Source: Bacillota bacterium | GTDB lineage: Bacteria > Bacillota > Clostridia > TANB77 > CAG-508 | DNA: 64,000 bases | Assembly (NCBI GenBank): GCA_963929915.1 | Contig: CAWVJY010000008.1 | Coordinates: 226,705-290,704 of the forward strand | Reading direction: 5' to 3' | Part shown: positions 60,929 to 61,346 of the stretch, in pieces | Position numbering within the stretch: position 1 is the stretch's first letter | Layout of the letters: every line of letters starts with the position of its first letter | The notes under the pieces: model-generated | Told to the model about the DNA's origin: nothing | The model's database searches: none | Seen by the model: the letters and a program-made list of their open reading frames with translations, nothing else | Made by a program: the position numbers and the translations under genes

Positions 60929-60990
60929 AAGTTTCTAAGAAGTATAAAGATAGTATTGAACACTTCATGGGGGCTTAATATGGAATTAAA

Positions 60991-61148
60991 ATGAAAGTAT
61001 ATTTAGAAATAGTATAAAAGTAGACTTGCCTGAAACAGATCCAATATTTAAAAATGGAAAAGATAATGATATTGGAACTAGAATCTTAATAGGTATGCCA
61101 GAAGAAGAGCCTATTTTAAAAACAGGAAAAGATATTGAGAGATAACTC
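60991..61148 (+). other. possible small ORF inside an unexpected ~420-bp insert between rplW and rplB
   Basis: MKVYLEIV, then after a 1-nt shift KVDLPETDPIFKNGKDNDIGTRILIGMPEEEPILKTGKDIER. Internal repeat PIFKNGKDNDIG / PILKTGKDIE. Confidence 0.3.
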
Positions 61149-61346
61149 AGAAAATAAACTTTATCTGCCATACGGAGCAGGAAAAAATCCGTAAAAATAT
61201 ATAAAGAAAGCGAGGGAGAAATTTTCAAAAACGAGTATTACTAGGCAAACGAAAAAATATTGATGAGACTATACATAATGTATGTCGAAGAAATATTTTT
61301 GAGTTTAACGACGTAAGACGAAGTTTTTCAAAATTTCGTAACAAAA

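Follow-up and report, generated by a model that had tools for sequence, protein, structure and literature searches.

A modular rplW-rplB spacer with a conserved candidate RNA element in the S10 operon of uncultured gut Clostridia

INTRODUCTION

Junctions between the genes of the S10 ribosomal protein operon usually measure a few nucleotides (nt) and are translationally coupled, and the usual gap between rplW (encoding uL23) and rplB (encoding uL2) is about 20 nt. A stretch of 64,000 nt from a Bacillota bacterium (Clostridia; TANB77; CAG-508; assembly GCA_963929915.1, contig CAWVJY010000008.1, positions 226,705 to 290,704), hereafter the window, departs from this pattern, and an earlier sequence-only reading had proposed that about 420 bp of extra sequence were inserted between the two genes. 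What occupies this junction, and is it an insertion at all? We find that it is probably best explained, taken as a whole, as this genome's form of a modular and rapidly evolving intergenic region between rplW and rplB that characterizes the clade, and that two of its modules, hairpin A and pseudoknot B, are best explained with the same confidence as a conserved RNA element that acts in cis and is specific to the rplB leader. Within the uncultured order TANB77, CAG-508 has been described as a major family (PMC11680825).

RESULTS AND DISCUSSION

The rplW-rplB spacer is long and modular throughout the clade

The gene order between positions 60000 and 62400 is rplD, rplW, a long gap, rplB and rpsS. 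The long noncanonical stretch that the sequence-only reading had reported is real and far exceeds the usual 20 nt or so; its limits and its nature have to be revised. The true rplW-rplB spacer covers positions 60979 to 61346 (368 nt rather than about 420), since the start previously placed at 60929 rests on a false stop codon at 60926-28, and the first 50 nt of the supposed insert are the end of rplW. We compared this spacer with those of relatives, namely, uncultured gut Clostridia including Clostridium sp. CAG:508, CAG:567 and CAG:273 and Candidatus Merdicola. Across 80 genome loci, rplW and rplB lie 55 to 772 nt apart, a range that also holds for the 105 distinct spacers obtained when metagenome contigs are included (median, 263 nt). 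Instead of a single insertion, we therefore observe a lineage-wide modular intergenic region.

In the window, the modules follow each other from 5′ to 3′ as a small open reading frame (ORF) zone, hairpin A, pseudoknot B, a Shine-Dalgarno (SD)-like sequence, a long hairpin that we call element C, and the rplB ATG (Table 1). Alignment to related S10 operons, which had been suggested as a check, recovers the same architecture in independent assemblies, namely, the metagenome contig L201 (95% identical along the entire spacer), the genome closest to the window, L001 (operon identity, 96%), L040, and L017. A blastn search of the insert against the window found no second copy, and a promoter and terminator scan found no terminator-like sites within the spacer and no excess of promoter-like sites over chance in the scanned region (11 found, 15.9 expected). 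The components each have known relatives in kind (small ORFs, ribosomal protein leaders, repeats of the repetitive extragenic palindromic [REP] kind, and split ribosome-binding sites); we found no specific literature on an rplB leader with a pseudoknot or on repeats in ribosomal operons of Clostridia.

Hairpin A and pseudoknot B form a covarying RNA element found only ahead of rplB

Hairpin A has a 5-bp stem and an A-rich loop and is followed by a GGAAAAUAAA-like sequence. It is universal among the genome loci, being recovered by the covariance model in 75 of 80 and by a hairpin scan in the other five, which carry a UCUAG/CUAGG variant. The outer U·G and C-G pairs are near-invariant, with the C-G pair replaced by a compensatory U-A in the window; both-side changes occur in three of the five pairs, and 97% of alignment cells are paired. 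The hairpin motif occurs 72 times in spacers, compared to 13 chance-like matches elsewhere. In most species a second hairpin lies exactly 29 nt downstream of the first and has the same flanks (UAUC...GGAAAA), and its loop pairs with sequence past an A-rich linker, generating the H-type pseudoknot B. In the window, stem P1 is formed by UCUGC and GCAGG and stem P2 by UACGGA and UCCGUA, with the linker at 61182-87. The frame NKLYLPYGAGKNP, earlier taken for a second open frame, runs across pseudoknot B and turns out to be the translation of this covarying, noncoding RNA.

Covariation of the two structures was tested on an alignment of 37 sequences, with 500 shuffles and slid-partner controls. Standard pairs are formed in 95.3% of cells (85.0% ± 0.8% in shuffles) and both-side changes are found in 10 of 15 pairs, values that were reached by none of the 500 shuffles; sliding the partners lowered the pairing to 32 to 59%. 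Stem P2 contributes both-side changes in all six of its pairs, and P1 contributes one covarying pair. A covariance model of A and B together has one match in the 64-kb window (61130-61201; E = 2e-16) and matches 77 of 82 loci (the 80 genome loci plus L201 and L202), 57 of them with the full motif and 20 with hairpin A only, as well as 28 further metagenome loci. All of these matches lie between rplW and rplB on the sense strand, with none elsewhere in about 1.2 Mb. Of the 80 genome loci, 55 have the full motif, and B is absent in 25 species. A search of Rfam over 60979-61346 returned nothing, either at E ≤ 10 or at the gathering score. Elements A and B represent a new candidate cis-acting RNA that is specific to rplB, supported by covariation, and absent from Rfam. 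The constrained stem bases, repeated in both hairpins together with their flanks, suggest a putative protein-binding site, and the pair would most likely act as a protein-binding operator or as an insulator or stabilizer that uncouples rplB initiation from upstream events.

Pseudoknot architectures are common among operators of ribosomal proteins, such as that of Escherichia coli rpsO. A more specific version of the operator reading, which we regard as possible though rather doubtful, is that A and B form an autogenous ribosomal protein leader, in which excess uL2, uL23 or uS19 would bind both hairpins (UAUC-stem-GGAAAA) and repress rplB and the downstream genes. Such a leader would account for a conserved, covarying element that is restricted to the region before rplB, and a tandem pair of sites spaced 29 nt apart, with constrained closing pairs and conserved single-stranded flanks, is what would be expected of a protein-binding site. 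A precedent also exists in the L2 leader candidate described upstream of rplB in Alphaproteobacteria (Eckert and Weinberg 2020, PMC7247131), likewise a conserved, covarying, lineage-restricted RNA in the S10 operon immediately upstream of rplB. The element described here nevertheless differs from known leaders in lacking an Rfam leader match even at E ≤ 10, in occurring in Clostridia, and in standing clear of the SD sequence and the start codon. Moreover, in 14 species a 120-nt element separates A and B from the start codon, and mimicry of E. coli 16S or 23S rRNA was not found with the covariance model, while a pattern scan gave a weak 16S look-alike only. This look-alike, a hairpin near position 1321 of E. 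coli 16S rRNA (UCGAC...GUCGGAA), was set aside; it shares the closing pairs only and is one of nine pattern matches.

Table 1. Features of the rplW-rplB junction and the adjoining genes in the window
Feature	Start	End	Strand	Description
rplW (uL23)	60633	60978	+	115 codons after indel correction; true stop TAA 60976-78
Small ORF, P0001 family	60980	61145	+	54 codons in the 95%-identical contig L201
Hairpin A	61135	61150	+	UUGAG / loop AGAUAA / CUCAG, then conserved AAAAUAAA
H-type pseudoknot B	61164	61193	+	P1 61164-68/61177-81; P2 61171-76/61188-93
SD-like GAGGGAG	61212	61218	+	Abuts the 5′ base of element C, 129 nt upstream of the rplB ATG
Element C	61218	61337	+	120-nt irregular hairpin, repeat-family copy
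rplB (uL2)	61347	62171	+	ATG 61347-49 (MGMKHFKPY...); tblastn and alignment to L001 and L201

Element C separates a Shine-Dalgarno sequence from the rplB start codon

With respect to rplB initiation, no SD sequence is found beside the start codon of the window. The duplex energy with the anti-SD sequence is −9.0 kcal/mol at 61212-18, compared to +0.6 kcal/mol in the 14 nt between element C and the ATG. Both the SD sequence and the AUG are unpaired in the centroid fold, the SD sequence also in the minimum free energy (MFE) fold, and nine nt separate the 3′ end of the C stem at 61337 from the ATG. In the 55 loci without C beside rplB, the median energy is −8.9 kcal/mol within 21 nt of the ATG, and the only one of these loci that is weaker than −5 carries a degenerate C-like hairpin.

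The loci that do have C beside rplB fall into two classes. About 12 species have a usable SD sequence downstream of C (−4.2 to −9.4 kcal/mol). The other class, made up of 13 loci and the window, has no SD sequence after C (−1.4 to +0.6 kcal/mol); here an upstream SD sequence of −8.1 to −9.0 kcal/mol abuts the 5′ base of C (GAGAGGAAG or GAGGGAG), with L034 as the exception at −5.8 kcal/mol. The closing stem of this second class, which in the window pairs 61218-26 with 61329-37, covaries (GAAAUUUUC/GAAAAUUUC versus GAAACUUUC/GAAAGUUUC) and is identical across the class except for a compensatory U-A to C-G change. This points to one old insertion of C that would have been retained across species whose uL23 proteins are 77 to 99% identical. 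We propose that rplB would be translated by independent initiation from a split ribosome-binding site, with the folded hairpin C bringing the SD sequence to about 9 to 10 nt from the AUG in the window and 13 other species. Coupling to an upstream ORF was considered in place of a split site and rejected, as the frame ending at TAA 61339-41 has no start codon; nor does any in-frame start codon provide another way to begin rplB.

Split sites of this kind have been demonstrated experimentally for genes 38 and 25 of phage T4, in which a hairpin reduces the SD spacing from 22 to 5 nt and from 27 to 11 nt, respectively (Nivinskas et al. 1999; Malys and Nivinskas 2009, as reviewed in PMC3014915). The proposed rplB arrangement resembles them in having a distant SD sequence with no alternative near the AUG, a stable hairpin that would restore the spacing, and conservation within a clade together with absence from relatives. 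It differs in scale, with an intervening structure of about 120 nt and an SD-AUG distance of 129 nt compared to 22 and 27 nt in T4, as well as in that the structure is a copy of a dispersed repeat rather than a local hairpin and that the gene is an essential cellular one, encoding a ribosomal protein. Fourteen species with 120 nt of folded RNA between the SD sequence and the AUG of an essential gene, alongside sister species without the insert, amount to a natural test of split sites. In L028 to L030, the sequence upstream of rplB reads AAAGAGAGAAGAAAA-ATG and has a weak SD sequence (−5.2 kcal/mol). It resembles the part next to the SD sequence in the split class, minus the repeat, and this hints at a possible excision or deletion.

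Element C belongs to a dispersed family of structured repeats

The window copy of element C folds with an MFE of −31.2 kcal/mol (z = −3.9), and its MFE and centroid structures coincide. It is the only copy in the 64-kb window, and iterated nhmmer searches found 64 copies of the family in the genome loci. Apart from the site before rplB, copies occur immediately past rplW (in reverse orientation) and in the L29|S17, S17|L14 and L14|L24 spacers. The copies of this 110-nt repeat in the latter three spacers and in the str, spc, dnaK, groE, clp and por operons include those at L014 7690-7793 and 8220-8328, L063 7676-7785, and L001 7747-7852 and those in the metagenome loci L083 to L200.

We further scanned metagenomes with a conserved-core pattern, which drew at least 120 stretches, so that any enrichment seen here is not a genome-wide count. 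Element C is found in 103 of the 120 stretches listed (176 matches). Among the matches listed, the spacers that bear it include S12|S7, S7|fusA, L6|L18, S14|S8, S10|L3 and L11|L1, as well as grpE|dnaK, groES|groEL, clpP|clpX, porG|porD, porA|porB and others. The copies mostly lie between codirectional genes, and their orientation is fixed at each site and mixed overall (32 forward and 52 reverse among the matches listed).

RNAalifold on 45 copies yields 27 pairs, 23 of which show compensatory changes. The outer stems vary by site and are still complementary, and two purine-rich internal loops and an apical UAC/GUA are conserved. The structure has a preferred strand: on the forward strand of the element, G·U outnumbers A·C by 22 to 5 in forward copies and by 26 to 3 in reverse ones, and the forward strand folds better than its reverse complement in 20 of 24 forward copies and 20 of 21 reverse copies (40 of 45 in total). 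Since the same strand is favored in both orientations of the copies, the structural constraint on C is not tied to the host mRNA.

Dispersed intergenic palindromic repeats are known as REP elements and bacterial interspersed mosaic elements (BIME), enterobacterial repetitive intergenic consensus (ERIC) elements, Correia elements, and elements resembling miniature inverted-repeat transposable elements (MITE). Element C is best described as a structured repeat of the REP/ERIC/MITE kind, with which it shares an imperfect palindrome of about 110 to 120 nt, multiple copies between cotranscribed genes in either orientation, and variable presence. It departs from them in its few copies, its concentration in the most highly expressed operons, its site-variable outer stems, and a folding asymmetry between strands that is independent of the direction of the host genes. 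Comparison of filled and empty sites by eye gave no sign of a target-site duplication, and a partner transposase was likewise not identified, although no transposase search was made. The family is a new one, in an uncultured gut order of medical interest. Shortened repeats stand upstream of rplB in L007 (4590-4625), L016 and L020, where only the basal stem (AAAAUUUAUCAAAAACG/AAGUUUUUCAUAAAUUUU) is present or the apical part is missing; this indicates probable internal deletions within a long palindrome. Two further readings of C were rejected. The hammerhead-like UGAUGAG...CGAAG in its apex is not conserved in other copies, and an integron attC site, in which a single strand folds with extrahelical bases, would require R′/R″ core sites and a cassette-like association with ORFs, neither of which was seen on inspection.

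Could C instead be a functional RNA or single-stranded DNA element, such as a binding site through which the most highly expressed operons are coordinated, so that its place before rplB is regulatory? Among the matches listed, the copies are concentrated in spacers of operons for ribosomal proteins, elongation factor G, chaperones, Clp, and pyruvate-ferredoxin oxidoreductase, and the remaining 58 kb of the window has none. The conserved nucleotides of the purine-rich internal loops, the outer stems that covary between sites, and the fixed orientation at each site also speak for such a role. Both orientations with respect to transcription are nevertheless well represented, and reverse copies fold best antisense to the transcript, which is a misfit with a role in mRNA. 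The enrichment, moreover, comes from the pattern-drawn metagenome sample. We consider this reading unlikely.

A small ORF follows rplW in the nearest relatives

The small ORF claimed by the sequence-only reading exists, with homologues in the same position in nine other contigs; the MKVYLEIV amino terminus given for it joins two frames. The intact version in L201 encodes MNQNESIFRNSIKVDLPETEPIFKNGKDNDIGTRILIGMPEEEPILKTGKDIER; it starts 1 nt past the rplW stop (TAA-T-ATG) and ends at a TAA (61143-45) in the loop of hairpin A. Relative to L201, the copy in the window has an extra G at 60983 and reads TAA in place of CAA at 60987, two disruptions that may be sequencing errors or decay, and the 39-amino-acid (aa) ORF called mechanically at 61026-61145 is its C-terminal part. 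The duplicated PIxKxGKD motif stands as claimed: the window has PIFKNGKD (61041-64) and PILKTGKD (61110-33), 69 nt apart, and the motif is duplicated in all five clusters of the family. At the nucleotide level, this 69-nt duplication is below the threshold of Tandem Repeats Finder, so its support is at the peptide level only. Every member has the internal repeat (D/G)(L/M)PExEPI(F/L)KxxKD.

An open-frame search recovered two predicted proteins, of 54 aa (98% identity) and 52 aa (82%). An exhaustive search of 1.8 billion representatives gave five matches at E ≤ 0.001, four of them further small proteins of 51 to 78 aa; the fifth, a 1,269-aa protein (E = 5.8e-4), looks spurious and was set aside. 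Altogether the family forms five clusters of 51 to 78 aa with 44 to 81% identity, in which reading frame and position are kept, and its genes lie directly after rplW, between rplW and rplB, in nine of nine contigs. It is confined to a small subclade. Relatives lacking a conserved ORF, which the sequence-only reading had named as evidence that the stretch is ordinary intergenic DNA, are the rule in most of the clade and are not what is seen among the nearest relatives. The ratio of nonsynonymous to synonymous substitution rates (dN/dS) is 0.41 to 0.58 in 8 of 10 pairs and 1.14 and 3.44 in the other two. Neither Pfam nor PHROGs returned a family at threshold for the ORFs of the spacer, this one included, and AlphaFold gave no confident fold for the 54-aa protein (mean predicted local distance difference test score, 59; predicted template modeling score, 0.13). 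In L001 the ORF is truncated to its C-terminal half.

The position of this ORF is a hypervariable slot. An ORF of at least 45 codons is present in 36 of the 105 distinct spacers, and these ORFs form 24 clusters, about 20 of them credible and none belonging to a known family; the P0001 family of the window is the largest. Most begin 3 to 19 nt past the rplW stop. The last rplW codons, ATG-GG(A/G)-GC(T/A), contain an SD-like GGGAG or GGGGG, and the anti-SD duplex energy at the end of rplW has a median of −6.5 kcal/mol compared to −1.0 kcal/mol in control windows inside rplW. Many of the ORFs end in ...EER just before hairpin A or run into it (...NIGKEPGE, ...SIER), and the purine-rich segment that they use for their ends precedes hairpin A in spacers without an ORF too. 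One family copies the N terminus of uS3 (13 of 24 residues identical; E = 2e-9), which suggests that the 5′ end of rpsC was partially duplicated into the slot. These uS3-like ORFs (NPHGL.IGI.KDWNS.WY) were noted in L060 (4353-4541), L066, L042 and L054. For the 146-aa ORF of L033, a word-indexed search matched only the ORF itself.

It could be argued that the functional unit of the spacer is a lineage-specific microprotein, for example a ribosome-associated factor, and that the RNA structures are incidental. Position and frame kept over five clusters at 44 to 81% identity, the conserved internal repeat, dN/dS below 1 in most pairs, and a coupled start adjoining an SD-like motif are all in line with this. 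On the other hand, most relatives lack this ORF and have about 20 other unrelated ORF families or none, the ORF is truncated in L001 and disrupted in the window, and it belongs to no family, lacks a predicted fold, and shows dN/dS above 1 in two pairs. Hairpin A is universal and no ORF is, and a microprotein as the main unit seems to us improbable.

A different and tentative proposal, to which we give less than even weight, combines the slot with the RNA element. The rplW-rplB junction could serve as a protected nursery for new microproteins, with the hairpin, with or without the pseudoknot, ending their frames and insulating rplB initiation. The SD-like motif in the end of rplW would give nearby new start codons expression at the level of the ribosomal operon; some 20 unrelated ORF families may have originated in the slot or moved into it, one of them as a copy of the 5′ end of rpsC; and the insulation would be robust enough to tolerate a 120-nt repeat between the SD sequence and the AUG of rplB in 14 species. 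If true, this would include the longest split ribosome-binding site known, in an essential gene. At this one highly expressed position, the locus itself has gained and lost small ORFs repeatedly.

How the modules may work together

Taken together, the preferred reading of a modular, clade-typical spacer would have all parts transcribed on one polycistronic mRNA. Ribosomes ending rplW would reinitiate 1 nt downstream on the 54-codon ORF and terminate in or just before hairpin A; A and B would serve as leader or insulator; and rplB would then be initiated from the SD sequence on the far side of the folded element C.

Several observations weigh against parts of this account. Element A-B ends at 61193 and, in predicted folds, neither overlaps nor pairs with the SD sequence at 61212-18 or the AUG, and its covariance model has no match in the E. 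coli rrnH operon at E ≤ 10. The better folding of reverse C copies antisense to the mRNA argues against an origin of C at the mRNA level, and, given the roughly 12 species with an SD sequence after C, the element is not needed for initiation as such. The small ORF, weakly constrained, without a predicted fold, truncated in L001 and broken in the window, may be dispensable or decaying. Its translation, like that of rplB from the split site, is proposed from the sequence. Finally, the window sequence is error prone at the S10 operon.

The idea closest to that of an insertion is that the stretch as a whole came from a single recent insertion of a mobile element, or from an assembly chimera, within an otherwise normal S10 operon. 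Element C is indeed dispersed in both orientations and differs in presence between close relatives, sequence quality at the locus is poor, and two metagenome contigs, L097 and L102, join L14 directly to the A-B, C and rplB region. Only 120 of the 368 nt are repeat derived, however, with A-B and the ORF being locus specific; the complete spacer recurs in the independent assemblies L201, L001, L040 and L017; all 105 distinct related spacers exceed 54 nt and carry hairpin A; and around C we recognized no terminal inverted repeat with a target duplication, its outer stems being site variable yet complementary. This explanation is largely refuted and very unlikely. The gene order in L097 and L102 is L14, repeat, hairpin/pseudoknot, repeat and L2, skipping eight genes, and both contigs are probably assembly chimeras formed via the repeat copies after rplN and rplW.

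PreQ1-I riboswitches and pseudoknots of the luteovirus type are compact H-type folds in which stem 1 has 5 bp, loop 1 is short, and loop 3 is A rich. That pseudoknot B is a preQ1-I riboswitch is extremely improbable: it has the same topology (5-bp P1, short L1, P2 with the 3′ tail, and an A-rich linker of 6 to 7 nt), but there is no Rfam match even at E ≤ 10, the 5′ strand of P2 abuts the 3′ strand of P1 and therefore leaves no loop-2 nucleotides for a ligand pocket, P2 (5 to 6 bp) covaries freely and contains no SD sequence, the downstream gene is rplB rather than a queuosine gene, and 25 species do without B. The luteovirus comparison likewise fails in the lack of a slippery site or relevant frame and in the different gene context. 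A role of B as a stimulator of readthrough or frameshifting was rejected, since there is no slippery site and readthrough adds only 13 codons.

Sequence quality, corrected gene boundaries and operon context

The S10 operon of the window (58800-63650, rpsJ to rpsC) contains about 47 isolated 1-nt indels, approximately 1 per 100 nt, mostly in short homopolymers and at identical positions relative to both independent relatives, L001 and L201. Examples of 1-nt gaps in these alignments are at 60255, 60362, 60376, 60451, 60556, 60713 and about 60920. The gene directly upstream of the operon has in-frame indels only. Because of the 1-nt indels, all ribosomal protein ORFs from about 58.9 kb onward are fragmented; the upstream 58 kb is largely intact, with long ORFs. 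The S10 stretch of the window looks like a locally unpolished or error-prone assembly, and readings based on ORFs are unsafe within it.

The apparent rplW stop at 60926-28 is a frameshift artifact, with indels near 60713 and at 60919-22 relative to L001 and L201. In a manual reconstruction, the uL23 frame passes this point once one base is restored in ggaaagaagtaaaag and then ends in ...KYKDSIEHFMGA. Residues 1 to 115 of the reconstructed protein align in the 80 species-representative genomes at 77 to 99% identity. The rplB gene of the window is also broken by many 1-nt indels, for example two spurious extra A residues near 61356-60. In other bacteria uL23 has about 95 to 100 aa, and the protein of this clade is longer: it measures 115 aa in the window and in all 80 genome loci, with an extra segment before the usual ...SIEHFMGA end.

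The probable start of the operon is marked by a terminator-like hairpin at 58611-42 and a near-consensus promoter, TTGACT-17-TATAAT (58631-59), followed at 58672-58768 by a match to the S10-Clostridia leader that is below threshold (20.5 bits against a gathering score of 35.1). Farther upstream, between 38115 and 51000, the window holds a Tad/Flp-like pilus gene cluster with ATPase-like genes, one of which appears to be split by a frameshift (40716-41888 and 41842-42699), and at least four pilin-like ORFs that begin MENASKALI(I/M)AG... at 45036, 45755, 46968 and 47442; a further prepilin-like protein of 463 aa is encoded at 57176-58567, and an exact look-up of this protein, meant to locate a better assembly of the strain, returned no entry. 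The cluster resembles the pilus cluster reported to be conserved in the uncultured order TANB77 (PMC11680825).

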